Notes under the pieces: generated by a model
Seen by the model: the letters and a program-made list of their open reading frames with translations, nothing else
The model's database searches: none
Told to the model about the DNA's origin: nothing
In this document: piece by piece, positions 3,131-23,312 of the stretch
Layout of the letters: the number at the start of each line of letters is the position of its first letter
How positions within the stretch are numbered: position 1 is the first letter of the stretch
Origin: a virus
Taxonomy: Duplodnaviria > Heunggongvirae > Uroviricota > Caudoviricetes
Length of the DNA: 23,312 nucleotides
Reading direction: 5' to 3' (one strand)
Virus record (IMG/VR): IMGVR_UViG_2703718778_000014
Made by a program: the position numbers and the translations under genes

Positions 3131-3136
3131 GCATGT

Positions 3137-3304
3137 AAAAAGGCTCCTGCAATGAGGAGCCTGGATGTATGCCTAATCTCTGTATACTACATGGTGCCGG
3201 GTGCCTCCCGGTGAGTTCAGTATCAGCACCTGAACCCGCACAGAAAGGATAGAGTAGAAACACCTGCGCTGATATGCCCCTCCGCTCAGGGGGATTCACC
3301 ATGC
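3137..3304 (-). ncRNA. Candidate structured small RNA, repeat unit A (boundaries approximate)
   Basis: Conserved blocks shared with units B and C; variable 8-bp stem gagttcag (3213-3220) / ctgaaccc (3230-3237) fully paired only on the minus strand (G-U); minus-sense terminator hairpin 3142-3161 plus T-tract; no conserved ORF. Confidence 0.35.
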
Positions 3305-3398
3305 AGAACTTTTTTAACAACTCCCCGTCAGACAGGCAAGCATCAACCATCTGAACTGTGAGGGATTTAACATTTAACAACACAGCCTTTTCCCGCAC

Positions 3399-3563
3399 AA
3401 AAAAAGCCCCTCAGGAGAGGGGCCGATCGCTGTGTATACACCATAAGCAGCATAGTGCCGGGTGCCTCCCGGTAGATTCAGCCTGACTACTGAATCTGCG
3501 TATTGTGACCATCGCTATGGAGACCATGTCAGACGCCCCTCCGCACAGGGGGATTCACTATGC
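3399..3563 (-). ncRNA. Candidate structured small RNA, repeat unit B (boundaries approximate)
   Basis: Same conserved blocks; variable stem agattcag (3474-3481) / ctgaatct (3490-3497) with compensatory changes relative to A and C; strong minus-sense terminator gcccctcaggagaggggc (3406-3423) followed by TTTTTTT. Confidence 0.35.
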
Positions 3564-3779
3564 TGGCTCGTTTTTACAAGACTTCCATCAATCAGACAAT
3601 AGTCCATCAACCGAATTGTGAGTCATTTAACATTTCCATGAGGTAACTGATATCCAGCTAACAATCATCTGCAATGGACGAAGCCAGTTCCAGAACTTGC
3701 CCACACTACAGCAACAACCACTGCATTCCAAAAATGGAATTTTGGGAGATTACTTCTGCAAACAGCTACCGATAAATAT

Positions 3780-4061: not shown

Positions 4062-4065
4062 GTCC

Positions 4066-4245
4066 ATAAGAAAGCCCCTCCAGAGAGGGGCTGAAGCCGC
4101 ATTTCTGTATCACCATGAGCATGGTGCCGGGTGCCTCCCGGTGAGTTCAGCCCGGTGACACTAAACCCGCGTATTCTCGCTTACGATCATCAAAGAGATC
4201 ATACCGTTCACCAGTCGCCCCTCCGCACAGGGGGATTCACCATGC
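4066..4245 (-). ncRNA. Candidate structured small RNA, repeat unit C (boundaries approximate)
   Basis: Same conserved blocks; variable stem gagttcag (4143-4150) / ctaaaccc (4161-4168) has two mismatches on the plus strand that are G-U pairs on the minus strand; minus-sense terminator hairpin at 4074-4091. Confidence 0.35.
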
Positions 4246-4380
4246 GAAATTTTTTTAACAAATGCCCAGTCTGACAGGCAACTGTCAACTTACTGAATTG
4301 TGAGGAATTTAACACTTCACAGCACAATATCTTTCCAGCACCCCAAAATCATCTGGACAGGAGAAAATCTTCTCCCCCAG

Positions 4381-5087: not shown

Positions 5088-5164
5088 TGGACCGCCATCG
5101 AGGACTCGAACCCCGCGCAGCCAGCTCCGAAGGCTGGCGCTCTATCCCGATGAGCTAATGGCGG
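5088..5164 (-). tRNA. tRNA-Arg, anticodon UCG (77 nt including CCA)
   Basis: Manual cloverleaf on the minus strand: acceptor CCGCCAT/ATGGCGG, D-arm GCTC...GAGC, anticodon stem CCAGC/GCTGG with loop CUUCGGA, T-arm CGGGG-TTCGAGT-CCTCG, 3' CCA. C1-G72 pair is unusual. Confidence 0.7.
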
Positions 5165-5173
5165 TATGTGATA

Positions 5174-5249
5174 TGGTGGCCCTTGCTGGATTTGAACCAG
5201 CGACCTGGCGATTATGAGTCGCTCGCTCTCACCACTGAGCTAAAGGGCC
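5174..5249 (-). tRNA. tRNA-Ile2 type with anticodon CAU (ileX/ileZ-like; tRNA-Met not formally excluded)
   Basis: Minus strand reads GGCCCTTTAGCTCAGTGGTGAGAGCGAGCGACTCATAATCGCCAGGTCGCTGGTTCAAATCCAGCAAGGGCCACCA; canonical arms, anticodon loop CUCAUAA; close to E. coli ileX as recalled. Confidence 0.8.
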
Positions 5250-5289: not shown

Positions 5290-6348
5290 TCATCCGTTCT
5301 GGCTGGCTAAATCCTGAACTTCCCTGACCGTCTGCTCAAAACGTTCAGTCTCCAGCTCAACGCCTGTAGCACGACGCCCCAACACCATCGCTGCTTTGAC
5401 TGTCGAACCCGACCCCATGAAGAAATCTGCAACCAGGTCACCCGGACGACTGCTCGCACTGATTATCTGCTGCAGCATTTCTGCCGGTTTTTCGCACGGA
5501 TGTTTCCCGGGATAGTACTGCACCGGTTTATGCGTCCACACATCGGTGTACGGCACCCGCACCGTCACACCGAAATACCGCCGCAGATGCTTATATTCAC
5601 TCTGCAGTTCCGTATACTGCCGGTTCAGTTCACTGTATGTGCTGACCAGTTGGTGATGTGGCTTTTCCAGTTCTCCGCGCTGATGCTTCTCTTCTGCCAC
5701 CCGGGCAAACAGCGCCTGTAATTTCAGATAATCGCTTTCGTCCGGTAACTGCCACTGGCTGGCACTGAACCAGTGCGACACCATATTTTTCTTTCCTGTG
5801 GCATCCACTATCTGTTTTGCCGTTATCCCCAGGGCAGCACGCGCATCACGAAAGTAAGAAATCAGCGGGGCCATCACATGCTGTTTCAGTGCCCTGCCCT
5901 TCGCCTCATACCCGGCATCTTTCGGGCGATACGGCCCCTGATAATGTTCCGCGAACAGAATGCGCTCTGTGGCGGGGAAATACGCCCTCAGGCTTTCCTT
6001 GTTGCACCCGTTCCAGCGTCCGGACGGCTTTGCCCAGATAATATGGTTCAGCACACTGAAGTGTTCACGCATCATGATTTCGATATCAGATGCCAGGCGA
6101 TGGCCACAGAACAGGTAAAGACTTCCGGCAGGTTTCAGCACCCGCCAGAACTGCGCAAGACACTGGTCCAGCCACTTCAGGTAATCATCGTCGCCCTTCC
6201 ACTGGTTATCCCAGCCCTCAGGCTTCACTTTAAAGTACGGCGGGTCCGTGACTATCAGATCAACAGAATTTTCGGGTAACGACCGGATAAATTCCAGGCA
6301 GTCAGCGTTGATTAACTCACAACTGGATATTTTTACAGTGTTAAGCAT
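5290..6348 (-). CDS. DNA methyltransferase, N6-adenine/N4-cytosine family (DPPY motif), 352 aa
   Basis: ATG at 6348; motif IV DPPY near the N-terminus (LIVTDPPYF) and motif I FxGxG near the C-terminus (DFFMGSGST), i.e. beta-class order; position after Q and before tRNAs as in Stx-type phages. Confidence 0.8.
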   Translation of the reverse strand: MLNTVKISSCELINADCLEFIRSLPENSVDLIVTDPPYFKVKPEGWDNQWKGDDDYLKWLDQCLAQFWRVLKPAGSLYLFCGHRLASDIEIMMREHFSVLNHIIWAKPSGRWNGCNKESLRAYFPATERILFAEHYQGPYRPKDAGYEAKGRALKQHVMAPLISYFRDARAALGITAKQIVDATGKKNMVSHWFSASQWQLPDESDYLKLQALFARVAEEKHQRGELEKPHHQLVSTYSELNRQYTELQSEYKHLRRYFGVTVRVPYTDVWTHKPVQYYPGKHPCEKPAEMLQQIISASSRPGDLVADFFMGSGSTVKAAMVLGRRATGVELETERFEQTVREVQDLASQNG

Positions 6349-7919: not shown

Positions 7920-8969
7920 TTACCCGAGCACGCCAGTCGCAAAGGCGTGATCAAGAAAATGAAAAATTAACTCAACCTGGGACCCGTACTTTTTCTCAAA
8001 CTCCAGCGGGTCAGCATGAAGTTCGTTGTGGTGCTCCCGGCACAACGGTAGTGTGAAAATATCGTGGGATTTTGTCCCCATACCGCCCTGCCCATGGCCA
8101 ATCAAGTGATGCGGATCATCAGCTGGCTTTCCACAGCATGCACACGGCTGCGTCTTAACCCAGCGCGTGAACTTTTCATTAACCCAGCGACGACGTTTAG
8201 GCCGTTTCATGAAAGATTCCGGGGACTCCGGATCAACGGCGATGCTTACTACCGTCTTTTCCTGTGGCGTGGTTTGTGGCTGGTGGGCGTGAAGCGGTGG
8301 CGCTATGTTTTTTGTCCGCTGCTTCAGGATGCTGGTGGCGGTCTGCTCTCCCGGTATGATGTCGCTCTCACTGTATACGGAGCGAATTTTTTCCACCGGT
8401 AATCCCAGCGAACGACGCAATACAGATTCCGGAAGCGCATCAGCCACCTGATTGCAGACCGCCCACCAGGATAATTCAGCCAGCGATAATTCACGCTCCT
8501 GTGCGCCATTCATTACGTGACGGATGACGTCAATCATCCAGGCGGCCAGATTCTGTTGAGCAAGTAGCTCCAGTGAATCAGATGTCTGCTCCCGCAGGTG
8601 GTTGTCGCAGTGCCAGCACAACACCATCGCGCCGGTACTGTAACGGTGAATGACGGTTTCGCTGTGATGATAATCGCCGTGTGGCCACTGGCAGGATTTC
8701 ACGTGACGTAATAACCAGTCAGACAGTACACCAGCGCCACCCGCAGCACGGATCACCCGCTCATCGCTGAAAAATGGCAGTAATGATTTATCTTCCGCCA
8801 GCGGCTGGCGAACGGCAGGTACAAACCCGGACGGCAGAGCACGCATGCTTTTCGGTTCCGGCTCCACCAGCACCCTGCCGCAATGAAAAACAGGCAGTGA
8901 TTCGCGTCCGGGCTTAAGGACCACCAGGCCAAGTTCCGGCACCAGAACAGGTCGAAGTAATACCCGCAC
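7920..8969 (-). CDS. DUF968 (YdfU-like) protein with C-terminal HNH-like zinc-finger motif
   Basis: GTG start at 8969 with strong RBS GGAGGT; C-terminus CACCGKPADDPHHLIGHGQGG...LCREHHNELH resembles HNH nuclease signatures; 349 aa as in Qin-prophage YdfU. Confidence 0.55.
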   Translation of the reverse strand: MRVLLRPVLVPELGLVVLKPGRESLPVFHCGRVLVEPEPKSMRALPSGFVPAVRQPLAEDKSLLPFFSDERVIRAAGGAGVLSDWLLRHVKSCQWPHGDYHHSETVIHRYSTGAMVLCWHCDNHLREQTSDSLELLAQQNLAAWMIDVIRHVMNGAQERELSLAELSWWAVCNQVADALPESVLRRSLGLPVEKIRSVYSESDIIPGEQTATSILKQRTKNIAPPLHAHQPQTTPQEKTVVSIAVDPESPESFMKRPKRRRWVNEKFTRWVKTQPCACCGKPADDPHHLIGHGQGGMGTKSHDIFTLPLCREHHNELHADPLEFEKKYGSQVELIFHFLDHAFATGVLG

Positions 8970-8970
8970 G

Positions 8971-9243
8971 TTACCTCCAGATACGTTGCTGGAATGTGCG
9001 GGACGGACGCGGTGGACGTTCGGAATAAGGGAGCCTGACAGAGATTATCCAGTGACGATAATTGAGGCTGAGGGCTTTCTTAACCTCGTATCCGCGCCTG
9101 CGGTAACACTGAATCAGCCATTCGGCCTGTTCTTCAGTGCATGGAGGATGCTGGTACCAGTGGGTTTTAAATACGTGCGAATGCCGCCCCCGCTTAATGG
9201 CCGGGACGGCTTCAGAATTGTGGGATTTTATATGTTGCGCCAT
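8971..9243 (-). CDS. Small phage protein, possibly YbcO-like (DUF1364)
   Basis: ATG at 9243 with RBS GGAGAA (the ORF-track start at 9261 is an upstream GTG); Cys/His-rich 90-aa protein preceding DUF968 and rusA as ybcO does in DLP12. Family call is tentative. Confidence 0.4.
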   Translation of the reverse strand: MAQHIKSHNSEAVPAIKRGRHSHVFKTHWYQHPPCTEEQAEWLIQCYRRRGYEVKKALSLNYRHWIISVRLPYSERPPRPSRTFQQRIWR

Positions 9244-9337
9244 CGGGTTCTCCGGTGACACAGCAGGTGCCAGTTGTTCAGGCTGGCTGGATGATTTTAA
9301 CCAGAATGCGATAAAAAGTGTATAAGACCATCACATA

Positions 9338-9368
9338 TTGCATTCATGCAAAATGATTGTTACATAAT
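9338..9368 (+). promoter_or_regulatory. Candidate sigma70 promoter for the plus-strand two-gene cassette
   Basis: -35 TTGCAT (9338-9343), 17-nt spacer, TACATAAT (9361-9368) in an AT-rich divergent intergenic region. Confidence 0.3.
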
Positions 9369-9415
9369 ATTACTTAATAAGTATAGGTTTTACCGTTTTA
9401 TCATTAGAAGATTGT

Positions 9416-10642
9416 ATGTCAGGAACCATAACAAAAATCAGCACAGGGGAAAATGTTCTGTCAGCAGCAATCCATCGCATTGAATGGTTGTTCGAAACGT
9501 TTAATGAGGTCTGCTTGTCTTTTTCTGGTGGCAAAGACTCTACTGTGCTTTTCCATCTTGTGGCAGAAGTCGCCAGTAGAAAAAAACGTCGTTTTTCGGT
9601 TTTATTCATTGACTGGGAAGCCCAATATCAGTGCACGATTAATCATATCCAAAAGATGAGGGAAATGTACCGGCATGTGACAGACAATTTTTACTGGGTA
9701 GCGCTTCCTCTGACTACGGTAAATGGCGTCTCTCAGTTTCAGCCAGAATGGATATGTTGGGAGCCAGGTGTAGAATGGGTTCGTCAGCCACCAGATGACG
9801 CTATTACAGATATGTCGTATTTCCCATTTTATCGGTATGCCATGACGTTTGAAGAATTTGTTCCGGCATTTTCTTCCTGGTTTGCCGGTAACCGATGTGG
9901 AGTGGGAATACTAACTGGTGTTCGTGCTGATGAATCGCTCAATCGCTTTATGGGACTGGTGTCTCAGCGCAAACTGAGATATGCAGATGATAAACCCTGG
10001 AGCACCGCTTCACCCGATGGTTTTTACTACACCATGTATCCATTGTATGACTGGAAAACAAATGATATATGGACGTATAACTCAAGAACCCGCGCCATCT
10101 ACAATCCCCTGTACGACCTAATGTACCGTGCCGGAGTGTCGTTACGCAACATGCGTGTTTGTGAGCCCTTTGGCCCGGAACAGCGTAAGGGGCTGTGGCT
10201 TTACCATGTTCTGGAGCCGGAAACCTGGGCCAGGATGTGTGAGCGAGTGTCAGGGGCTGCCAGTGGCGCTCTTTATGCCAATGAAAGCGGTGCCTATTTT
10301 GCTCTGCGTAAACGAATCACAAAACCGGCTCATCATACCTGGCGCAGCTACGCAATGTTCATGCTGGATGTTATGCCAGAAAGAACAGCAGAACATTACC
10401 GTAACAAAATTGCAGTCTACCTGCGCTGGTATCAGACGCGGGGCTTCCCGGATGATATCCCGGATGAACAGGAGAATGACCTGGGGAGCCGGGATATCCC
10501 GTCCTGGCGACGTATCTGTAAGACGCTCATAAAGAATGACTTCTGGTGCCGGACCCTCTCCTTCAGTCCGAACAAACCCCGGCACTATGAGCGTTATCTG
10601 CAACGAATGAAGGAAAGGAGGAAAGAATGGGGGATTCTGTGA
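9416..10642 (+). CDS. ibrA: PAPS-reductase-like PP-loop ATP pyrophosphatase (IbrA-like, DndC-like fold), 408 aa
   Basis: PP-loop motif SFSGGKDS near the N-terminus; 3' end overlaps the next gene by 16 nt. Confidence 0.65.
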   Translation: MSGTITKISTGENVLSAAIHRIEWLFETFNEVCLSFSGGKDSTVLFHLVAEVASRKKRRFSVLFIDWEAQYQCTINHIQKMREMYRHVTDNFYWVALPLTTVNGVSQFQPEWICWEPGVEWVRQPPDDAITDMSYFPFYRYAMTFEEFVPAFSSWFAGNRCGVGILTGVRADESLNRFMGLVSQRKLRYADDKPWSTASPDGFYYTMYPLYDWKTNDIWTYNSRTRAIYNPLYDLMYRAGVSLRNMRVCEPFGPEQRKGLWLYHVLEPETWARMCERVSGAASGALYANESGAYFALRKRITKPAHHTWRSYAMFMLDVMPERTAEHYRNKIAVYLRWYQTRGFPDDIPDEQENDLGSRDIPSWRRICKTLIKNDFWCRTLSFSPNKPRHYERYLQRMKERRKEWGIL

Positions 10643-11271
10643 CGCCTGAGATGGATGTACTAAGCAACATGATTCGTCAGTACTTCAGTCGGGAACAGCC
10701 CGAAGAAGAGTCCATACGAGCCCTTAACCATCTGCGCAGGGTACTGCATGAAGTCAGTCCTTTTGCACAGGAGCCTGTAGACTGTGTGCTGTGGGTGAAA
10801 GCGGATGAGGTGGTAGCCAACGATTATAACCCCAATGTCATGGCACCAAGTGAGAAGAAACTGCTGAAGCAGTCACTGGAAAAAGATGGTTTCACACAAC
10901 CGGTGGTGGTGTCAGAGGAGAAGAATCATTATCTGGTGGTGGATGGTTTTCATCGTCAGTTATTGGGCAGAGAATCAGTTACAGGAAAACGTCTGAGGGG
11001 CTGGCTGCCTGTAGCCTGTATTAATCCAGAGAGAAAAGGGCAAGCCGCACGCATTGCCGCAACCATTCGACATAACCGGGCTAGGGGGAAACACCAGATA
11101 GACTCAGTGTCTGATATTGTAAGAGATCTTTCACGCTTGGGATGGGCAGATGAACGCATTGGCACTGAGTTGGGTATGGATCAGGATGAAGTACTGAGAC
11201 TTAAACAAATTAGCGGGCTAACTGAGTTATTTCAGGAAGTGGATTTCAGCCCGGCATGGACAGTTAAATAG
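10627..11271 (+). CDS. ibrB: ParB N-terminal-domain (ParB/sulfiredoxin-like nuclease) protein (IbrB-like), 214 aa
   Basis: Strong RBS AAGGAGG; ParB-box-like HYLVVDGFHR and basic TIRHNRARG block; translationally coupled to the upstream gene. Confidence 0.65.
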   Translation: MGDSVTPEMDVLSNMIRQYFSREQPEEESIRALNHLRRVLHEVSPFAQEPVDCVLWVKADEVVANDYNPNVMAPSEKKLLKQSLEKDGFTQPVVVSEEKNHYLVVDGFHRQLLGRESVTGKRLRGWLPVACINPERKGQAARIAATIRHNRARGKHQIDSVSDIVRDLSRLGWADERIGTELGMDQDEVLRLKQISGLTELFQEVDFSPAWTVK

Positions 11272-11324
11272 CAAGCTCGACTTACTCCCGGCAAGGCAAC
11301 AAAATGATAACTAATACAACTCAA

Positions 11325-11347
11325 GGGCGATTAATATCGCCCCTTTT
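11325..11347 (+). terminator. Intrinsic terminator after the ParB-like gene
   Basis: Stem gggcgat (11325-11331) / atcgccc (11336-11342) followed by TTTT. Confidence 0.5.
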
Positions 11348-11436
11348 ACTGCTCAATTTTCGACCGATACATCTACTTGACTCTCGTTTTACTCCCCCTT
11401 TTTACCCGATATGGAAATTCCCATATCGTAATGAAT

Positions 11437-11541
11437 TCAGCTCCCCAGACGATCCATCAAAAGCACGACCGGGCAGTAAACACCCACAACAACAATAACG
11501 GCCAGAGCGCCTTCCATTGCCAGTGAGATATCATCCGACAT
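11437..11541 (-). CDS. Small hydrophobic peptide (34 aa)
   Basis: ATG at 11541 with strong RBS AGGAGGG; MSDDISLAMEGALAVIVVVGVYCPVVLLMDRLGS; below the ORF-track length cutoff. Confidence 0.3.
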   Translation of the reverse strand: MSDDISLAMEGALAVIVVVGVYCPVVLLMDRLGS

Positions 11542-11576
11542 ATTCCCTCCTTTGGTGTGAATCCCGGCGAACGTTT

Positions 11577-11660
11577 TTACCCCCACCGACAAATAACATA
11601 TATTAAAAAAGCGATAACCATAGCAACGCCTGTAATTGCAAATGCTTCAGGCCAGTTCAT
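11577..11660 (-). CDS. Small hydrophobic peptide (27 aa)
   Basis: ATG at 11660 overlaps the stop of the DUF551 gene (ATGA) with GGAGG upstream; MNWPEAFAITGVAMVIAFLIYVICRWG. Confidence 0.3.
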   Translation of the reverse strand: MNWPEAFAITGVAMVIAFLIYVICRWG

Positions 11661-12169
11661 TGGCGCACCTCCTGCGGCGGTTCTGGTAGCGGCATCCAGC
11701 CGGTTACATTGCGGCTCTGTGTTTCGAAAAATTCATCACCATTACGGACTACATCAAAAAACTCACCGTCTCGATATTGCGCATAAAGAACGAATGCGCC
11801 ATCACATAAAATAATTACGTGCTGACCATCATCCGGCATTCGCTCACTACAGCTTATCCAACCATCCGGAGTTACCGGATAGTTGGTTGACGTTTCCGAG
11901 ATTTCCCGAAAATTATTGGTTGACGACCCCTTATTTTCCCGAAAGTTTCCAGCCTGAAGCATGGCGGCGCGGTGACACCAGATAATCCAGCCAAGCGCCA
12001 TATCCCATGCCATGTATTCTCTATCGCCATTTTTTGCTCTGCGGCGATCTACAGATTCTCCGAAACGCTTCTCCATAAATAATTCATAGGCTGCTCGTTC
12101 ATCCGATACTGCTGCCAGTGATGCCAGCGCAATCCGTGCCAGCTCTTCCGCTTCTTCTGCTGGAAGCAC
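11657..12169 (-). CDS. DUF551-domain phage protein
   Basis: C-terminal block PDGWISCSERMPDDGQHVIIL...GWMPLPEPP typical of DUF551; GTG start at 12169 (an in-frame ATG start further in is possible). Confidence 0.55.
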   Translation of the reverse strand: MLPAEEAEELARIALASLAAVSDERAAYELFMEKRFGESVDRRRAKNGDREYMAWDMALGWIIWCHRAAMLQAGNFRENKGSSTNNFREISETSTNYPVTPDGWISCSERMPDDGQHVIILCDGAFVLYAQYRDGEFFDVVRNGDEFFETQSRNVTGWMPLPEPPQEVRQ

Positions 12170-12240
12170 AACGTTGCTACCCGGTCCGTATGTTTCGCGC
12201 CAATGCTGGATTGTCAGCAGTCAATCTTTGGTAATAGTGG

Positions 12241-12756
12241 TCATGCCGCGTTTCCTTCTTTCTTATTAACAATTACACCGTCATATATTTCATTAAGGTG
12301 CCCTCTCAACTCCATGCGCCTTAATGCAGATAACATGTAATCGCATTCAACCTGCTTATTTCCAGTAAATGGCTTATCGTCAGGATTACCCCAACAGCAA
12401 TTACCCCTGGGCCATCCATGTACTTTCCGTACTCTTCCGTTAACAACGTGAAGTAATCCCCAGCCGGGAGGTAAATCCTCAACTGAAATAATTCCCGGCT
12501 CACTAATAAAGAATCGCCAGTCGCCCATGCCAAGTGAGGGATTTTTACGGAAACGCTTTTTTCTATCTGCCAACAAGTCAGCACGAGAACACTTCGCCTC
12601 TATCAGGCATGATGCTGAATTTCTGAATCCCATAGCATCTGGCTGTTCTCCGGTACTGGTTACAGCAACAAAGCGGTCATGAAAGCAAACCTTGAACCCG
12701 TTGCGCTTAAGGAACTTGTACGCAATCTGACAGAGTTCGTGGTGTGTTAACGCCAT
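12241..12756 (-). CDS. Hypothetical protein with a PD-(D/E)xK-like motif (possible VRR-NUC-type nuclease)
   Basis: ATG at 12756 with RBS AAAGGAG; motif QPDAMGF...CLIEAKCS fits the PD...ExK nuclease core; the fold assignment is an inference. Confidence 0.45.
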   Translation of the reverse strand: MALTHHELCQIAYKFLKRNGFKVCFHDRFVAVTSTGEQPDAMGFRNSASCLIEAKCSRADLLADRKKRFRKNPSLGMGDWRFFISEPGIISVEDLPPGWGLLHVVNGRVRKVHGWPRGNCCWGNPDDKPFTGNKQVECDYMLSALRRMELRGHLNEIYDGVIVNKKEGNAA

Positions 12757-12757
12757 A

Positions 12758-13195
12758 TCACTCTCCTTTGATGCGAATGCCAGCGACGCGTAATGCGTGT
12801 TCTAGGTCAATCAGGTAAAGCCAACTGCCATTTTCTTTAGGTATCATGACTTGTCGCTCATCTGCATTTATCGGGTGTCCATATCGAAGGTCGTAACGAG
12901 TCGGTAATTGAACTTCCCGCGCTTCCAGTTCAGCAATACGCTTGCTCCCATCAGAGATAACGCCTTCGTAATACTCACGCTGCTCGTTGAGTTGTGATTT
13001 TGCTTCTTCCAGTCCATCCAGCAAATCAGCGATAATATCCGCTTCCCGATGACGGATGTGACGCTTAAACGCCGCTAAAGCTGCATCACAATCCTGTTCA
13101 GCGTTTGGACTGTCTGGCTTTTCCTGATACCACGCCAGCGTCGATTGATAGTTTTGTGCTGCCTCACGCAGTGCCTGATAGTCAATCTTGCTCAC
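12758..13195 (-). CDS. Ead/Ea22-like phage protein (145 aa)
   Basis: GTG start at 13195 with RBS AAAGGAGG; N-terminus SKIDYQALREAAQ resembles Ea22-like proteins as recalled; coiled-coil-like middle. Confidence 0.45.
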   Translation of the reverse strand: MSKIDYQALREAAQNYQSTLAWYQEKPDSPNAEQDCDAALAAFKRHIRHREADIIADLLDGLEEAKSQLNEQREYYEGVISDGSKRIAELEAREVQLPTRYDLRYGHPINADERQVMIPKENGSWLYLIDLEHALRVAGIRIKGE

Positions 13196-13499
13196 TGGCT
13201 GCCTCCTTTGCCGGGATTTCTAACTTTTGAGTGGTTGTATCAAATTCAAACAACTTAACCACGTCATCAAACAGGACATAATCACCATCAGGATCTTCAG
13301 TCATATCAGTGCCACAATCCTGACCGCACGAGTCGCAACCACCCATATCAAGCTCGTATCGCTTCAGGTTCGCGATATTTGATAAATTCAGCGCCAGTAC
13401 AGCCAGATCATTAACCTCGTCTGCGGTATACCCTGCACCATGTCCATACATTCCAATGCGGGATATGATTTCTTCTACACGTTGTTTTGTGATCGTCAT
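13182..13499 (-). CDS. Hypothetical acidic phage protein (105 aa)
   Basis: ATG at 13499 with RBS GGAGTGAAGAG; MTITKQRVEEIISRIG...; contains CDSCGQDCGTD and an acidic tail. Confidence 0.45.
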   Translation of the reverse strand: MTITKQRVEEIISRIGMYGHGAGYTADEVNDLAVLALNLSNIANLKRYELDMGGCDSCGQDCGTDMTEDPDGDYVLFDDVVKLFEFDTTTQKLEIPAKEAASEQD

Positions 13500-13770
13500 T
13501 TTTCTCTTCACTCCGATATACAAGGATTACTACGCCCCCTCTGCTGATTGCGCGAGCTGGATCTCCTGGTTCCATACCGTCAATCCCGAAGGCTTCGAAA
13601 AATGCATCCATTGCCTGCTGGCGTTGATCCTGCCTACGGCGTTTATTCCATTTTTTCATGAACAACAGTGACATCCATCGTCCGCTGCAGAACATGATGT
13701 AGAAATAACCAAGAAGTGCCAGGCCGGTATTCAGGGCCGTATCAATCGTTATCGCCGGGTCAATATTCAC
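13411..13770 (-). CDS. Possible small membrane protein; 3' end overlaps the next gene by about 89 nt
   Basis: GTG at 13770 preceded by AGGAGGTGG; hydrophobic segment GLALLGYFYIMFCSG followed by a basic stretch; the C-terminal third looks low-quality, so a frameshift or an earlier true stop is possible. Confidence 0.3.
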   Translation of the reverse strand: MNIDPAITIDTALNTGLALLGYFYIMFCSGRWMSLLFMKKWNKRRRQDQRQQAMDAFFEAFGIDGMEPGDPARAISRGGVVILVYRSEEKNDDHKTTCRRNHIPHWNVWTWCRVYRRRG

Positions 13771-14056
13771 TGACCACCTCCTGAAAAATAACCGCATGAC
13801 CCAGTTTCTCCGTCAGTGCCAGCTCAGTCCTTGCACCTGCCGACTGCTGCCAGCCTTTCAGTATGTAAACCGCATCCACGCAACGGAGCATTGCCATGCA
13901 AATATCCATGTAGTGTGGCTGAGTCAGCCCGTCCGGAAGCACAGCCGGATTTAAAACGGTATGCCCTTCCCGTTTCAGCGCCTCTGCCGCCTTGTGAAAT
14001 GCCTCGCGGTTAAAATTTTCATATCCCGTCATCGGACCGGCGATATAAATCCTCAC
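13760..14056 (-). CDS. DUF4406 (nucleoside 2-deoxyribosyltransferase-like) phage protein
   Basis: N-terminal signature (M)RIYIAGPMTG; GTG start at 14056 overlapping the upstream stop (GTGA). Confidence 0.6.
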   Translation of the reverse strand: MRIYIAGPMTGYENFNREAFHKAAEALKREGHTVLNPAVLPDGLTQPHYMDICMAMLRCVDAVYILKGWQQSAGARTELALTEKLGHAVIFQEVVSEY

Positions 14057-14370
14057 TCCTGAACCCTCCTGTCGAAATAAACGTAGTTATTCACTGCGCC
14101 CAACTTCATCCCAAACTTTTCGGCAATTTCCCGTTGGGGTACGCCACGCTGATGCAGTTGCCGCGCCAGCTCAATATCACGCTGTGAGAATTTGGCTGAC
14201 TGGTGATAATCACCCCGTAACATCATGCTGATCCCCAGTTCCCGCGCTTTCGTCCTGACGGCTGACTCACTACGGCCAATCAGATAACCGATGCTTTCGA
14301 CTCTCATCGTTCCCGCACACTGCCGGAGTATCAGGATTTCAGCCCAACGCCACTTCTTCCAGCCACTCAC
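14053..14370 (-). CDS. Putative DNA-binding protein with two helix-turn-helix-like segments
   Basis: GTG at 14370 overlapping the stop of the 44-aa ORF (GTGA); segments SESAVRTKARELGI and QREIAEKFGMKLGAVNNYV look like HTH motifs; the ORF-track upstream extension to 14457 looks non-coding. Confidence 0.4.
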   Translation of the reverse strand: MSGWKKWRWAEILILRQCAGTMRVESIGYLIGRSESAVRTKARELGISMMLRGDYHQSAKFSQRDIELARQLHQRGVPQREIAEKFGMKLGAVNNYVYFDRRVQE

Positions 14371-14501
14371 CGCTGCTGCTCTCTGGTGGTGGTAATATCC
14401 CGGAGAATATCCCTGTGTTTGTTCAGTTCCCGCAGCGCAGCACAGACTCGCTCCCACTTCTGGACATCACTTTTCGCCCGACGCAGTTCGCGGTTTGCCA
14501 T
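14367..14501 (-). CDS. Small basic protein (44 aa), translationally coupled to the downstream HTH gene
   Basis: ATG at 14501, 6 nt after the preceding gene's stop; MANRELRRAKSDVQKWERVCAALRELNKHRDILRDITTTREQQR; not in the ORF track (short). Confidence 0.3.
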   Translation of the reverse strand: MANRELRRAKSDVQKWERVCAALRELNKHRDILRDITTTREQQR

Positions 14502-14507
14502 ATGCAG

Positions 14508-15083
14508 CTATGGTAAAACCAGGTCATCCGCTTGCGTTTCGGTGAACAGTGGCAACGACTGCACAATATCCACCACAGTTTCTGTTTTAATATCTTCCTG
14601 TGTAGTCGTTTGCTGGACTGGTAACGCAACACCTGCTGGCTGAGGAAGGGCTTTACCATCCGTTTCCGCTACAGATGCGGCTTTCGGCTCTACTGGTAAA
14701 TTATCGCCCGGCATGCAGTAACGAAATTTACCGCCCTGATTCACGCGAATCAGACGCCCTTTGCTGATTGCCATTGCCAGCGATGAATTCGCACGGCGGG
14801 AGGTAATTCCGAACATCAATGCCAGCTCATCCGCCGTTTGTGGGCCATGTTGTTCAATCGCCTCTGTCAGCATTTGCGCCGTCACTTTTGGTGGTTGTAT
14901 CACAGATTCACTTTCCCCTGCCTGAGTCAGCCACCACATCGCCCCCCTGTTATCCGCTTCACCACGGCGTTTCAGTTTCCACAGTTCGTTGACAGCCTCT
15001 TCACGACTGATTCCAAGGCGCGCAGCCACCACATGTGAAGAGGCTTTTTTCAGTGCTTTCAGTGCGTCAGATACGGTTTCCAT
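14508..15083 (-). CDS. Phage protein with N-terminal winged-helix-like domain (191 aa)
   Basis: ATG at 15083 with RBS GGAGGA; N-terminal [34 protein letters not shown]; family not firmly recognised. Confidence 0.5.
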
Positions 15084-15104
15084 TAAAATTTCCTCCGGAC
15101 AAAA

Positions 15105-15851
15105 TTACTTCACAACCCTCATATTGCTGACATTTGGACGCCAGCTATCCCAGTTAAACGTCACCCATCGACCACCGTTCATGGTCATGCGGTCCATAAT
15201 CCTCTCACCAAGAAGCGTACTCATTGCGGCATGATTCAGGTTTGTTAACATCCCGACACTGCACAGTGATGCTGTCCGGCGATCAATTATCTGGTGCAAT
15301 ACCACCTGCTCGTTTTTCGTCTCCCGCTGGACGCCTATTTCATCCAGGACCAGCAAATCAACCCCGCAAAGCTCCTGTAAAAATTTTTCCCCGGATTTGC
15401 CGTTGTCGTAGCTGTCATGCAACACGCTCATGACGTCAGACACGGTGACGATAATCACGCTGCGCCCCTTCACCATCAGCCGGTTGCCCATCGCCGCTGC
15501 AAGGTGATTTTTCCCGGTGCCGGTTTTACCGCTGAACACAAAATTCGTGCACCCGGTCATCAGTTCGTCAGCTATGGATTTGGCCTAGCTCAGCGCGTAT
15601 TTTTGCCCGTCGTTCTGCACCTGATAATTTGCAAACGAGCATTTGCTGTGCAGAGGCTGGATGCCCGAACGATTCAGGATTTTTTCCACCCGCAACTGGC
15701 GATTCTGGCAGTTAATCTCCTCGCTGCGTTTTCGTCCTTCAGCAAGTTGCCATTCCCGCCACTCCTCCACCGTCCGGTACGGTGGAACCGCCCCCAGTGG
15801 TGCAAGTCTGCGAATACATTCAAGAACCCCAACTGCCGCAATGTTTTTCAT
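15105..15851 (-). pseudogene. DnaC-like helicase loader (YdaV-like) interrupted by a single in-frame amber codon
   Basis: N-terminal fragment (15588..15851, ends ...FANYQVQNDGQKYALS) and C-terminal fragment (15105..15560, FSGKTGTGKNHLAAA Walker A) are in one frame separated by TAG at 15585-15587; read-through gives ...KYALS*AKSIADELMTG..., collinear with E. coli DnaC. Confidence 0.7.
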
Positions 15852-18746: not shown

Positions 18747-18773
18747 GGCGGAAATGAATATCCGCCCTTTTTA
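18747..18773 (+). terminator. Intrinsic terminator in the early-left leader
   Basis: Stem ggcgga (18747-18752) / tccgcc (18761-18766) followed by CTTTTT. Confidence 0.4.
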
Positions 18774-18950: not shown

Positions 18951-19139
18951 ATGGAAACGTTATTACCAAACGTTAATACGTCTGAAGGTTGTTTTGATAT
19001 TGGTGTTCTGCTCAGTAATAAAGCGTTTACTGAGGATGCCATTAATATGCGGAAATATGAGCCTTATCTGCTCAATGATAATTCCATTCTTTCCCGAATT
19101 GCCCTTATTAAACTTGGTATTTTCGGAGAACGTCAATGA
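18951..19139 (+). CDS. Hypothetical protein (62 aa) in an AT-rich insert
   Basis: ORF in a locally AT-rich segment (about 18900-19200); stop overlaps the ATG of a 17-codon hydrophobic ORF (19136..19189, MTSAFALVMTVFLITGE). Confidence 0.3.
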   Translation: METLLPNVNTSEGCFDIGVLLSNKAFTEDAINMRKYEPYLLNDNSILSRIALIKLGIFGERQ

Positions 19140-19419
19140 CTTCAGCATTTGCACTGGTGATGACGGTTTTTCTTATAACGGGTGAATAACAGAATGTGAT
19201 TACCGGAATTTATGCCAGTAAAGAATCCTGCCTCCAGGCAAGAGACGAGCAAAAAATTTCTGGTGAATGCCTACCGGTAAAAAAAGTATCGCTGAACCTG
19301 AATAACGAAACACCGGCTGGATAACCCGCCAGCCATATTAACGCCATACCAACGGATTAAAAATGCCAGCAATAGCAGGGATTCGTTCACCCTGAAATCT
19401 GTAATGAGGTTAAAACACA

Positions 19420-21891
19420 ATGAATAAAATCTTTATTTGCGCTGCTATTCCTGACGAACAGGCCATAGAAGAAGATAGCGCTGTTGCGGTGGCCACTGCC
19501 ATTGAAGCCGGTGATGAGCGTCGCGCACGCGCAAAATTTCACTGGCAATTTCTGGAGCAATTCCCGGCAGCTCAGGACTGCGCTTATAAATTTATTGTCT
19601 GCGAGGATAAACCCAGTATACCCCGCCCTGCCCTCGATTCCTGGGATACCGAATATATGCAGGAAAACCGCTGGGATGAGGAGTCTGCGTCCTTTGTCCC
19701 GGTCGAACCCGAATCCGATCCGATGAACGTCACTTTTGACAATCTGGCCCCTGAAGTACAGAACGCCGTCATGGTTAAGTTCGACGCATGTGAAAACATC
19801 ACTGTTGATATGGTGATTAGCGCTCAGGAATTGTTGCAGGAAGACATGGCAACATTCGACGGCCATATCGTTGAAGCGTTGATGAAGATGCCAGAAGTTA
19901 ACGCCATGTATCCGGAGCTTAAGCTGCATGCCATCGGGTGGGTTAAGCATAAATGTAAACCTGCTGCTAAATGGCCCGAAATTCAGGCAGAGATGCGCAT
20001 CTGGAAAAAACGTCGCGAAAGTGAACGCAAGGAAACCGGGAAATACATATCTGTCGTTGATATCGCCCGTTCCAGAGTAAACCAACAGAACACTGAAAAC
20101 GCTGCTGAAAAAACCGGGGCTGTCACTGTTGCCGTTCGCCGCGAATACAAACAGACATGGAAAACACTCGACAATGAACTGGCCTGCGCCCTCTGGCCCG
20201 GTGATGTGGATGCAGGAAACATTGACGGTACCATCCATCGCTGGGCGACAAATGAGGTTATCGACAAGGATCGCGAAGACTGGAAGCGTATCTCAGCATC
20301 AATGCGCAAACAGCCCGAAGCACTTGCCTATGACCGTCAGACTATTTTTGGCCTTGTTCGCGAACGTCCGATCGATATTCACAAAGATCCCGTTGCACTG
20401 AACAAATATATCAGCGAATACCTGACGACAAAGGGCGTGTTTGAACATGAAGAAACAGACCAGAGCTCTGCTGATGCTCTCCAGTCACCAGCAGCACAAA
20501 CTGCTCCAGTGGAGACGGCAGAATCCGATACTCAAAAAAATGAAATCCTGGTGGAAGCTGAACCATCTGTAGAGCGTGAAGGACCATTTTATTTCGTCTT
20601 TACCGATAAGGGCGGGGAAAAATACGGCAGGGCAAACAAACTTTCTGGTCTGGACAGGGCGCTGGCTGCCGGCGGTACCGAAATCTCAAAAGAAGAATAT
20701 TTTGCCCGAAAAAATGGCACATACACGGGCTTACCGCAAAATGTGGATAGCACTGAAGATTCCGAACAACCAGAGCCGGTAAAAGTTACCGCTGACGAAG
20801 TAAACAAAATTATGCAGGCAGCCAATATCAGCCAGCCTGACGCCGATAAATTGCTTGCTGCATCACGTGGTGAATTTGTTGAAGGGATTAGCGACCCGGA
20901 TGATCCGAAATGGGTGAAAGGGATCCAGAGTCGCGACGCTGAGGACCAGAATCAGCCCAACGTGAAACAAAATGAGCCAGAAGCGGAACAAAACAGCCCG
21001 GATACGCAACAAAACGGGCCAGAAGAACAACAACCAGAACCAGCAGTGCAACAGGAACTGGAAAAAGTTTGCACCGCATGCGGTCAGACCGGTGGCGGCA
21101 ACTGTCCTGACTGTGGTGCGGTGATGGGGAACGCAACCTACCAGGAAACATTCGATGAAGAAAATCAGGCTGAAGCTCAGGAAAATGATCCGGAGGAAAT
21201 GGAAGGCACTGAACATCTGCACAAGGAGAACACTGTCAGCGATCAGTATCACGCCAGCGATAATAAAACTGGCGAAACAGCAAATCCCTTAATTAAAGTG
21301 AACGGTCATCATGAAACCACATCCACCAGCAGGTTGTGGCACCATCTGATGATTGACCTTGAAACAATGGGAAAAAATCCTGATGCGCCAATAAACGCTA
21401 TAGCCGGTAAGTTTTTTGATCCGGCAACCGGAGAGATGGGGCCAGAATTCAGCAAAACTATCGATCTGGAAACCGCAGGCGGGGTCATCGATCGGGACAC
21501 CATTAAGTGGTGGCTGAAACAGTCACGCGAAGCACAATCCGCCATTCTGACCGATGAAATCCCGTTGGATGATGCACTGCTGCAATTCCGGGAATTTATC
21601 GACGAAAACTCCGGTGAATTTTTTGTTCAGGTCTGGGGTAACGGTGCAACTTTCGACAACGTGATTTTACGCCGTTCATATGAACGGCAGGGGATCCCCT
21701 GCCCGTGGCGTTACACCAATGATCGCGATGTAAGAACGATGGTTGCTCTGGGACTGGTGATGGATTTCGACGCAAGAACGACTATTCCATTCGAAGGTGA
21801 ACGCCATAACGCGCTGCACGATGCGCGTTACCAAGCAAAATACGTTTCAGCCATCTGGCAAAAACTGATCCCGAGTCAGGCTGATTTTTAA
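19420..21891 (+). CDS. Large phage protein with C-terminal DEDDh (DnaQ-like) 3'-5' exonuclease domain, 823 aa
   Basis: RBS GAGGT; C-terminal motifs MIDLET (Exo I), WGNGATFD (Exo II), HNALHDARY (Exo III, DEDDh type); acidic low-complexity middle region with a CxxC-x7-CxxC zinc-ribbon-like motif (KVCTACGQTGGGNCPDCG). Confidence 0.65.
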   Translation: MNKIFICAAIPDEQAIEEDSAVAVATAIEAGDERRARAKFHWQFLEQFPAAQDCAYKFIVCEDKPSIPRPALDSWDTEYMQENRWDEESASFVPVEPESDPMNVTFDNLAPEVQNAVMVKFDACENITVDMVISAQELLQEDMATFDGHIVEALMKMPEVNAMYPELKLHAIGWVKHKCKPAAKWPEIQAEMRIWKKRRESERKETGKYISVVDIARSRVNQQNTENAAEKTGAVTVAVRREYKQTWKTLDNELACALWPGDVDAGNIDGTIHRWATNEVIDKDREDWKRISASMRKQPEALAYDRQTIFGLVRERPIDIHKDPVALNKYISEYLTTKGVFEHEETDQSSADALQSPAAQTAPVETAESDTQKNEILVEAEPSVEREGPFYFVFTDKGGEKYGRANKLSGLDRALAAGGTEISKEEYFARKNGTYTGLPQNVDSTEDSEQPEPVKVTADEVNKIMQAANISQPDADKLLAASRGEFVEGISDPDDPKWVKGIQSRDAEDQNQPNVKQNEPEAEQNSPDTQQNGPEEQQPEPAVQQELEKVCTACGQTGGGNCPDCGAVMGNATYQETFDEENQAEAQENDPEEMEGTEHLHKENTVSDQYHASDNKTGETANPLIKVNGHHETTSTSRLWHHLMIDLETMGKNPDAPINAIAGKFFDPATGEMGPEFSKTIDLETAGGVIDRDTIKWWLKQSREAQSAILTDEIPLDDALLQFREFIDENSGEFFVQVWGNGATFDNVILRRSYERQGIPCPWRYTNDRDVRTMVALGLVMDFDARTTIPFEGERHNALHDARYQAKYVSAIWQKLIPSQADF

Positions 21892-21955: not shown

Positions 21956-22204
21956 ATGGCAAGACTTATTCTTCTCACTGAGTGGGCAAAAGAGGAATTC
22001 AGTGACCCGGTCCCGACTCCGGGCACGTTAAGTAAATACGCTAAAGCCGGAATGATATTTCCTCTCCCCAAAAAAGTTGGAAGACACTGGCGAGTGGATC
22101 CTCGAGCTCGCTTTGTCGGAATGGTAAACAAGCCGGAAGTGATCGCCACAGATCACCCTGCTTTGAAGAGGATACTGGAAGATGGCGCGCCCACGAAAAT
22201 ATAA
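21956..22204 (+). CDS. xis: Excisionase (Xis-like)
   Basis: 82-aa ORF immediately upstream of and overlapping int by 23 nt; MIFPLPKKVGRHWRV resembles the lambda Xis core (IFPPPVKDGREYL). Confidence 0.5.
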   Translation: MARLILLTEWAKEEFSDPVPTPGTLSKYAKAGMIFPLPKKVGRHWRVDPRARFVGMVNKPEVIATDHPALKRILEDGAPTKI

Positions 22205-23312
22205 AACTGAAGTTCCGGGATTATCTCCGTATTTTGACAAAAGAAATAACAAAGTTTACTGGCGTTACAGGCATCCCATAACAGGAAAAAATCACGGACT
22301 CGGCAGTATTGACCAGAAACAGGCAGAAGCTATTGCAGCAGAAGCGAACAGCCGTCTTGCCAGGCAACAAATGGAACAAATGCTCAGTCTGCAGGAGAAA
22401 ATTATTAGTGATACCGGTAGTCCATCAACCGTTTCTGCTTTTCTGAATAGTTACCGAAAAATTCAACAGGAAAGATATGAAAACGGAGAGATCAAACTCA
22501 ACACACTGAAACAGAAAGCATCCCCTCTCAGAGTATTTGATGAACGTTTTGGTACCAGACCATTAGATGCCATAACCGTAAAAGATGTGGTATCGGTGCT
22601 GGAAGATTACAAGGCAAAAGGACATAACAGAATGGGACAAATTTTCAGGAAAGTACTGATCGATGTTTTCCGGGAGGCCCAGCAAACGGGCGATGTCCCG
22701 CTAGGCTTTAACCCTGCAGAATCGGCAAAAAAACCACAGGTACGGATATCACGGCAACGACTGACCTTTGATGAGTGGATGATGATTTATAATGCAGCGG
22801 AAAAGGATGGTTACTTTTTACAGCGTGGTATGCTGCTGGCACTGATGACAGGCCAGCGCCTTTCAGATATTTGCAAAATGAAATTTTCGGATATCAGGGA
22901 TGGTTATCTTCATGTCGAACAGCAAAAAACAGGAACCCGGATTGCCATCCCTCTGGCTCTGCGTTACGATAAATTAAATCTCACCCTGGATGATGTGGTG
23001 TCATCCTGTCGCGATTGCGTTCTTAGTCCGTGGCTATTGCACCACCATCATGCTAAAGGGACAGCTAAGCGCGGCGGGATGGTTAAGCCAGCAACGTTAA
23101 CCGTTGCATTTAAAAAAGCCCGGGATTCTGTGGATTACAACTGGCGTGCTAATGGCACCCCACCCTCTTTCCATGAGCAGAGATCTTTATCAGAACGATT
23201 GTTCAGAGAACAGGGAATTGATACCAAAATTTTGCTGGGCCATTCGAATCAAAAAATGACCGATATTTACAACGACGCACGCGGTAAGGAATGGAAAAAA
23301 CTGGTCATTTGA
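22182..23312 (+). CDS. int: Tyrosine integrase, lambda Int family
   Basis: RBS GAGGA; collinear similarity to lambda Int recalled in several blocks (GQRLSDICKMKFSDIRDGYLHVEQQKTG..., PPSFHEQRSLSERLF, LLGHSNQKMTDIYNDARGKEWKKL); stop at 23310-23312, so the att site should lie just beyond the right edge. Confidence 0.85.
   Translation: MARPRKYKTEVPGLSPYFDKRNNKVYWRYRHPITGKNHGLGSIDQKQAEAIAAEANSRLARQQMEQMLSLQEKIISDTGSPSTVSAFLNSYRKIQQERYENGEIKLNTLKQKASPLRVFDERFGTRPLDAITVKDVVSVLEDYKAKGHNRMGQIFRKVLIDVFREAQQTGDVPLGFNPAESAKKPQVRISRQRLTFDEWMMIYNAAEKDGYFLQRGMLLALMTGQRLSDICKMKFSDIRDGYLHVEQQKTGTRIAIPLALRYDKLNLTLDDVVSSCRDCVLSPWLLHHHHAKGTAKRGGMVKPATLTVAFKKARDSVDYNWRANGTPPSFHEQRSLSERLFREQGIDTKILLGHSNQKMTDIYNDARGKEWKKLVI

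Follow-up and report, generated by a model that had tools for sequence, protein, structure and literature searches.

The window analysed here is a stretch of 23,312 nucleotides (nt) of viral DNA (Caudoviricetes; IMG/VR record IMGVR_UViG_2703718778_000014), and the gene of interest is a long open reading frame (ORF) near its right end, which runs as a single open frame from an ATG at 19420 to a stop codon ending at 21891 and encodes a protein of 823 amino acids (aa). A preliminary description of the window, made from the letters of the sequence, had presented this protein as an exonuclease of unusual architecture, in which a long acidic region with a zinc-binding motif is fused to a 3'-5' exonuclease of the DEDDh type. 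The gene and its parts, from start to end, are the following.

19420–21891, + strand: complete exonuclease ORF, YdfE/RecE scaffold plus DEDDh domain, 823 aa plus stop
19420–20199, + strand: module N1, aa 1–260, YdfE-type N-terminus, 87% identical to aa 1–255 of K-12 Qin YdfE
20200–20829, + strand: module M, aa 261–470, weakly similar to RecE aa 278–450
20839–21294, + strand: mosaic block common to K-12 recE, aa 474–625 (RecE about 453–591), acidic and rich in Q, E and P
21070–21114, + strand: zinc-knuckle motif CTACGQTGGGNCPDC (C551, C554, C562, C565), with CTAC at aa 551–554 and CPDC at aa 562–565
21323–21330, − strand: Chi site GCTGGTGG, in the stretch that separates the RecE-shared block from the DEDDh domain
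21340–21858, + strand: DEDDh 3'-5' exonuclease domain, aa 641–813, Pfam Rv2179c-like
21349–21366, + strand: Exo I motif MIDLET, aa 644–649 (D646, E648)
21634–21657, + strand: Exo II motif WGNGATFD, aa 739–746 (D746)
21805–21825, + strand: Exo III motif HNALHDA, aa 796–802 (H796, D801)

The three nuclease motifs are present as the preliminary description had read them, and the domain scan that it proposed as a check places the C-terminus in the DEDDh class and not in the PD-(D/E)XK class. The match to the Pfam family PF16473 (Rv2179c-like) extends over aa 641–813 and over the whole profile (positions 1–177 of 177), with an E-value of 7e-62 and a score of 208.7 bits against a cut-off of 27. The catalytic set formed by D646, E648, D746, H796 and D801 is complete, and it is conserved in 10 of the 11 family sequences that were aligned. 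These alignments show the C-terminal domain to be a predicted 3'-5' exonuclease, catalytically complete and of the Rv2179c/DexA-like DEDDh kind.

The only solved relatives of this domain found by sequence are the T4 DexA chains 8KEL and 8KEN (E-value 6e-6, low identity). DexA and its E. coli homologue EcD (‘HREX’) belong to the same DEDDh subfamily, with all the catalytic residues aligned, but both are stand-alone proteins of about 200–230 aa that lack the scaffold and have low identity to the window protein. The stand-alone DEDDh exonucleases of lambdoid phages (mEp460 gp26 and gp51 of Yersinia phage PY54), which are 50–56% identical to aa 633–821, measure about 190 aa and also lack the YdfE/RecE scaffold; mEp460 gp26 is encoded directly upstream of the excisionase gene, that is, in the same slot as the window gene. 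Rv2179c of Mycobacterium tuberculosis, the type member of PF16473, shares the Pfam family that the window protein matches over the full profile, but it is encoded on the chromosome as a separate enzyme, for which an exoribonuclease activity is described, and no direct sequence match to Rv2179c itself was obtained. An internal start at M644, which would give a stand-alone nuclease from the window gene, was considered and dropped, no Shine-Dalgarno-like sequence being found before M644 (DNA read by eye). One family member of 752 aa (P0268), with a RecE-type N-terminus and a DEDDh domain, has Lys in place of the Exo I Glu and Ala in place of the Exo II Asp; its nuclease domain is probably inactive and its scaffold is retained.

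The preliminary description had also placed the gene where prophages of the Rac type carry recE, and this position was borne out. RecE (exonuclease VIII) of the K-12 Rac prophage occupies the same slot, in the early-left operon of a prophage of the racR/ydaS/ydaT type and upstream of xis and int, and the two proteins are of similar size (866 aa for RecE, 823 aa for the window protein). They have in common the zinc-knuckle/acidic block, about 80% identical, and a weakly similar middle region, whereas the first 260 aa of the window protein are unrelated to RecE. The two also end differently: RecE terminates in a PD-(D/E)XK 5'-3' double-stranded DNA exonuclease and is followed by recT, and the window protein terminates in the DEDDh domain and is followed by xis. 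BLASTP aligns aa 262–625 with RecE 278–591, the last 150 residues being approximately 80% identical, and no similarity to the PD-(D/E)XK domain (taken as RecE aa 595–866) is found beyond RecE residue 591 by BLASTP or phmmer. The NCBIfam equivalog for RecE, NF007259, gives 253.7 bits against a cut-off of 1269, and this match is limited to aa 453–625.

At the DNA level, about 88% identity to K-12 recE extends over some 460 nt (ORF nt about 1420–1880) with unalignable flanks; a block so sharply bounded, immediately ahead of the nuclease domain, is a mosaic joint of the classic phage kind. The acidic, Q/E/P-rich region that had been described before the nuclease is indeed there, since aa 501–600 carry a net charge of −21, with 30–52% Q/E/P, and the whole protein has an isoelectric point of 4.6. 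The CxxC-x7-CxxC motif, previously given at about 21061–21115, was located at 21070–21114, where CTAC-x7-CPDC is the sole Cys cluster of the 823-aa protein. The presence of both elements is thus established, but their novelty is not, because the block of approximately 460 nt that contains them is shared with recE and they are therefore RecE's own. The pattern CxxCGxxGGxxCPDC is kept in all 15 of the 15 sequences that carry the knuckle, K-12 RecE (C517–C531) among them. About 25 nt separate the right-hand end of the recE-shared block from the Chi site at 21323–21330, and a recombination hotspot at this module junction could have promoted the exchange of domains.

The N-terminal part of the protein leads to a different K-12 prophage. 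YdfE of the Qin prophage (pseudogene b1577; PF27430, PF27432) has the same position in an operon of the type dicB-ydfD/DUF1482-ydfE, and, because it is 87% identical over aa 1–255 and the operon order is the same, the window gene can be identified from sequence and gene order as ydfE in its intact state, of which K-12 keeps a pseudogene. The K-12 order is dicF-dicB-ydfD-ydfE-IS2-intQ, and IS2 cuts the gene after about 255 codons, so that everything from the middle region through the zinc knuckle to the nuclease is lost; that the gene survives in K-12 only as this pseudogene may explain why it has been overlooked. Residues 1–205 are predicted with a local distance difference test score (pLDDT) above 90 and form a small alpha/beta unit followed by a helical bundle, but a fold search with this N-terminal model returned no informative match and no functional clue. 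Module M is predicted to contain a helical domain (aa 245–340) and a small beta-hairpin/helix domain (aa 385–435), together with disordered acidic linkers at aa 346–382 and 439–453; a single-sequence AlphaFold model of the full protein had a pLDDT of 35.6.

The architecture is real, very common and already catalogued, so the term “unusual” does not hold for a gene that is matched in 4781 of 5426 complete E. coli genomes and is present in near-full-length form (at least 80% coverage) in 3535 of them. The window gene is 100% identical in DNA to RefSeq JFY28_RS02220 (product WP_033804578.1, ‘exonuclease’), and other 100%-identical genes are named ‘exonuclease’ or ‘3'-5' exonuclease’ in complete RefSeq genomes; the carriers are E. 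coli strains of human origin, of which several are named STEC (Shiga toxin-producing E. coli). Overall, about two out of three complete E. coli genomes contain a member of the gene family, and most Shiga-toxin strains are among them. Homologues 84–87% identical occur in isolated phages and prophages (Tritos, HannyBb, PhiR42_1, mEp460_ev081 and the PPompW prophages), and at least 599 IMG/VR contigs contain a homologue. As for the catalogues, besides the names given by the Prokaryotic Genome Annotation Pipeline (PGAP), the profile PHROG 2082 (‘exonuclease’, 823 positions) matches positions 1–823 of 823, and proteins 97–99% identical carry the precomputed Pfam families PF27430 (YdfE_N), PF27432 (YdfE_C) and PF16473; the assignment of YdfE_N and YdfE_C is read from those proteins. 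Literature searches on the function of ydfE, on PF16473 in prophages and on Rv2179c in connection with prophages found nothing on function. Over the first third of the gene there is an antisense ORF of 283 aa (19387–20238, − strand), which is most likely a shadow of the coding frame.

Having described the parts of the protein, it is necessary to consider how they are combined elsewhere. A homology search with aa 1–470 retrieved near-identical E. coli proteins only. A HMMER search with aa 1–640 recovered 245 cluster representatives among 1.84 billion, and the scaffold family is therefore narrow. When the 56 representatives of at least 450 aa were classed by phmmer against defined modules, two N-terminal types were distinguished, the YdfE type and the K-12 RecE type, each followed by the middle and the zinc/acidic modules. 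The C-termini of these 56 proteins are a DEDDh domain (about 11), the RecE PD-(D/E)XK domain (about 14), a third tail (about 15) and two minor tails, and both N-terminal types occur with each of the exchangeable C-termini; P0129, for instance, joins a K-12-type RecE N-terminus and the zinc block to a DEDDh domain. The minor tails are C-terminal modules without a Pfam match, here called ‘X’ (P0125, P0139, P0247) and ‘Y’ (P0244, P0239).

The third tail is assigned by its profile to the Rad52 family of annealases, because the profile matches Pseudomonas proteins that stand alone, measure about 243 aa and in some cases bear the name ‘Rad52/Rad22 family DNA repair protein’ (about 40% identity, E-value about 1e-65). 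The Pfam family Rad52_Rad22 gives sub-threshold matches in 8 of 11 third-tail members, and a profile of the third tail found no match among the PDB sequences. Proteins that join the scaffold to this Rad52/Rad22-type tail (P0130, P0133, P0165, P0216 and others) carry the public names ‘exonuclease’ or ‘hypothetical’. In one locus (L091, 5650–7986) the neighbours of such a fusion are a Gam-like gene on one side and a Sipho_Gp157 gene on the other.

The nature of the C-terminus is accompanied by a difference in the neighbouring genes. In the window, the genes that surround the exonuclease gene are the following.

18951–19139, + strand: dicB, upstream gene of the operon
19196–19324, + strand: DUF1482 gene, upstream gene of the operon
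21956–22204, + strand: excisionase gene (xis), which starts 64 nt past the exonuclease stop
22182–23312, + strand: integrase gene (int), 376 aa, which ends at the last base of the window

An identical prophage is integrated beside ompW in strain S19-651, where the order is repressor, DUF1391, dicB, DUF1482, exonuclease, xis and int; in Tritos and HannyBb the order is dicB-ydfD-exonuclease-xis-int. The exonuclease gene is thus the last early-left gene before xis-int in a prophage like Rac and Qin, and the rightward side of the prophage carries genes of the ydaS/ydaT type, as in Rac. Since xis starts 64 nt downstream of the exonuclease gene, there is no room for a recT gene. Where the scaffold ends in a PD-(D/E)XK domain, an overlapping recT is the next gene in 3 of 3 loci (K-12 Rac, L093 and L092; the downstream gene of L092 matches Pfam RecT with an E-value of 2e-36), while xis-int follows directly in all five loci with a DEDDh version (the window, Tritos/HannyBb, L090, which sits in a Rac-like prophage, L094 and L095/96).

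The preliminary description had seen no RecT or Bet partner and had proposed a search for an annealase elsewhere in the prophage, and none was found in the window by any of the approaches used. RecT, Bet and Rad52-like genes are all absent from the PGAP annotation of the identical prophage. In the early-right region (7920–15560), 10 candidate ORFs of 96–349 aa were scanned against PHROG and Pfam and revealed no annealase, and the annotation of the complete Tritos genome has none. When hidden Markov models (HMMs) of RecT and of the Rad52 tail were run against all six-frame ORFs of the window and of 91 loci, only the positive controls matched; the RecT HMM, built from 3 sequences, recovered both of its positive controls. 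A tblastn search with K-12 RecT and lambda Bet, Exo and Gam gave nothing in 85 loci, but it is insensitive, having missed the true RecT of L093. With no annealase gene found and a nuclease domain that is DEDDh and not PD-(D/E)XK, the window gene does not belong to the two-component type formed by an exonuclease and an annealase (Red Exo/Beta, RecE/RecT). Across the relatives checked, the missing annealase goes with the DEDDh form and is not a peculiarity of the window prophage. What is new here is the identification of the gene with ydfE, the three-way swap of effectors on one scaffold, and the tie between the type of nuclease and the presence or absence of recT.

Promoter-like sites were found only at the immunity region of the window, and none upstream of the exonuclease gene. 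Upstream of dicB, the segment 18651–18826 (+ strand) is 81% identical to K-12 dicF and its flanks and contains a terminator-like hairpin (18747–18766) with a T-run; Rfam DicF gives no match at the gathering threshold in this segment, which may be a diverged small RNA (sRNA) of the dicF type.

A recent survey of lambdoid recombination (Rec) modules provides a frame for these observations. Its authors (PMC12315714, 2025) report that DnaQ-like nucleases occur in such modules, and they define a ‘Tritos’ class that has a nuclease, no single-strand annealing protein (SAP), no single-stranded DNA-binding protein (SSB) or anti-RecBCD gene, and abundant Chi; the text consulted does not state the type of the Tritos nuclease. 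They also mention ‘RecE-2’ proteins that have no nuclease domain, and explicitly leave domain shuffling outside their analysis. The ‘RecE-2’ proteins may be the fusions of the scaffold with a Rad52 annealase described above. The Tritos gene TRITO_27 is 87% identical in DNA to the window gene over its full length, in a Chi-rich genome with the same dicB-ydfD-exo-xis-int order; it is, however, a different allele, in a different prophage with another integration site. The Tritos module, with a nuclease and without an annealase, SSB or anti-RecBCD gene, resembles the window prophage in the absence of an annealase. Several phage records, TRITO_27 included, name the DEDDh protein ‘exonuclease VIII, ds DNA exonuclease’ or ‘exodeoxyribonuclease VIII’; the route by which such names were carried over is probably the shared RecE middle region, and the label ‘exodeoxyribonuclease VIII’ on DEDDh genes misstates both the fold and the polarity of the nuclease.

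The window contains six Chi sites (6463, 8279, 8331, 8864, 17007 and 21323) where 0.93 are expected from dinucleotide shuffles, and none of 100 shuffles reached six. Four of the six lie on the equivalent of the lambda top strand. In Tritos, 9 Chi sites are found on the top strand, one of them inside the homologous exonuclease gene (27079), and 2 on the bottom strand. The enrichment in the window fits the Chi-rich lambdoid class without anti-RecBCD, as that class is presented in the survey (PMC12315714).

The reading proposed here, to which a probability of roughly 0.45 is given, is that the protein is a DNA 3'-end exonuclease of the lytic cycle, built on the modular scaffold of Rec modules, and that in a Chi-rich, RecBCD-dependent phage it would serve in accessory end trimming. 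The gene would be expressed from the repressor-controlled leftward (early-left) operon after induction, and its product would remove nucleotides from DNA 3' ends, while the N-terminal scaffold would tether the nuclease to a target common to the RecE nuclease and the Rad52-type sister proteins. Strand exchange would probably be left to host RecBCD/RecA, because the DEDDh versions come without an annealase and an anti-RecBCD gene and are found in Chi-bearing phages. The trimming itself may consist, for example, in clearing 3' tails or flaps from ends that RecBCD could then still use, a role that would differ from that of the resection half of an exonuclease-plus-annealase pair. Of the two roles that the preliminary description had contemplated, recombination and anti-defence, the recombination-module context of the gene is supported, while an anti-defence role finds no support here, there being no PADLOC match and no promoter of its own.

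Several points weigh against this proposal. The E. coli chromosome carries about one Chi site per 4–5 kb, the density in the window is close to that average, and the enrichment may be an adaptation to host composition. The choice of DNA over RNA as substrate, like the role of the protein, is inferred, and the founding member of PF16473, Rv2179c, is by Pfam name an exoribonuclease. The idea of a common tether comes from domain shuffling, the N-terminal fold having given no clue, and the step in which ends are trimmed for RecBCD is a hypothesis put forward by this report. In addition, according to the survey, DnaQ-type 3'-5' exonucleases usually inhibit homologous recombination, and Rec modules of one gene are ‘somewhat suspect’ (PMC12315714).

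A broader suggestion, which must be considered rather unlikely for the moment, is that the YdfE/RecE N-terminus is a general adaptor, which brings to a common target whichever effector it carries, be it a Rad52-type annealase or a nuclease of 5'-3' or of 3'-5' polarity. To our knowledge, the role of the N-terminal region in RecE is undefined. If the adaptor exists, the DEDDh version would define a form of end processing in temperate phages that is independent of an annealase and cooperates with Chi and RecBCD. The domain swaps offer a handle on the purpose of the large, dispensable N-terminal part of RecE, and also on recombination-dependent replication in lambdoid phages that have neither an annealase nor anti-RecBCD.

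Among the alternatives to the end-trimming proposal, the one that survives best, although it is unlikely, is that the protein is an exclusion nuclease of the HREX type, which would spare the unmodified DNA of the host, degrade phage DNA with modified cytosine and thus protect the lysogen. The C-terminal domain is homologous to T4 DexA, and it has been reported that DexA and its short E. coli homologue EcD discriminate DNA with 5-hydroxymethylcytosine (5hmC), and that EcD degrades 5hmC T4 DNA and protects against T4 (Kang et al., NAR 2025; PMC12153337). Moreover, EcD was cloned from a MIDTET start that resembles MIDLET. However, EcD is a different, short protein, whose C-terminus reads ...TIPETY where that of the window protein reads ...PSQADF, and the Trp with which DexA recognizes 5hmC (W152) aligns with a Thr (T766) in the window protein, relatives having W, Y or C at this position. 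In a low-identity alignment, D90 of DexA (the tetramer-forming Asp, which is Ala in EcD) is kept as D717, and the region of DexA D169, the Asp that takes part in 5hmC recognition, has no reliable alignment to the window protein. No promoter-like site precedes the gene, which belongs to a repressor-controlled early-left operon that would be silent in the lysogen, and PADLOC-DB 2.0 gave 0 families at E ≤ 0.01. Finally, exclusion of this kind leaves unexplained the conserved scaffold of 640 aa, which is common to RecE and the Rad52 fusions.

It is quite improbable that the enzyme acts on RNA or on small nucleotides, either as an exoribonuclease like Rv2179c or, in the service of anti-defence, as a degrader of second messengers or of multicopy single-stranded DNA (msDNA) of the retron type. 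The Pfam family that matches best owes its name to Rv2179c, a 3'-5' exoribonuclease of M. tuberculosis, close relatives are often named ‘3'-5' exoribonuclease’ by PGAP, and anti-defence had been suggested in the preliminary description. Nevertheless, the solved relative, T4 DexA, acts on DNA, the domain stands in the place of a DNA exonuclease, the other effectors borne by the same scaffold being a DNA nuclease or a DNA annealase, and the gene is found in a slot for recombination genes. No link to immune signalling was found, and beyond the family name nothing speaks for such substrates.

A third alternative is that the gene is an evolutionary by-product, in which a deletion fused a recE-like gene with a stand-alone DEDDh gene next to xis and the N-terminal 640 aa are inert; the nuclease domain, if any part, would then be all that still matters. 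Stand-alone homologues of 190 aa (mEp460 gp26) do occupy the same slot before xis, the mosaic joint is at the linker and adjoins a Chi site, and truncated copies are common, that of K-12 ydfE cut by IS2 being an example. What makes this very improbable is the selection on the protein: in comparisons of seven homologues at a synonymous divergence (dS) of 0.3–0.67, the ratio of nonsynonymous to synonymous divergence (dN/dS) is 0.10–0.34, which means purifying selection on all modules, and the N-terminal module (0.12–0.18) is as constrained as the nuclease domain (0.10–0.12), while the middle modules have values of 0.23–0.34 (about 0.25 for module M and 0.23–0.34 for the zinc/acidic block). In addition, the frame is intact over all its 823 aa in thousands of genomes as well as in viable phages, and the DEDDh domain is fused to two different types of N-terminal scaffold. 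The last alternative, that the long ORF is an artefact in which a sequencing frameshift joined two genes, was raised as a caveat by the preliminary description and has nothing else in its favour; it is refuted by the conservation data, given that ORFs of 823 aa, identical (as in RefSeq) or 84–97% identical (84–87% in phages), are present in complete genomes independent of one another, in phage isolates and in at least 599 viral contigs, and that PHROG 2082 is a full-length profile of 823 positions, and its probability is virtually nil.

Some further features were noticed elsewhere in the window. Three tandem copies of the Rfam sRNA STnc100 (3131–3332, 3397–3592 and 4062–4274, − strand; 121–172 bits) follow the Q antiterminator gene, on its downstream side, in the late-regulatory region. 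Two tRNA genes (5091–5164 and 5177–5249, − strand), annotated as tRNA-Ile and tRNA-Arg in the identical RefSeq prophage, adjoin a DNA methyltransferase gene (5290–6348). Inside the nin region, in the opposite orientation, a pair of genes at 9416–10642 and 10627–11271 (+ strand) encodes a phosphoadenosine phosphosulfate (PAPS) reductase-like protein and an IbrB-like (ParB-like) protein.

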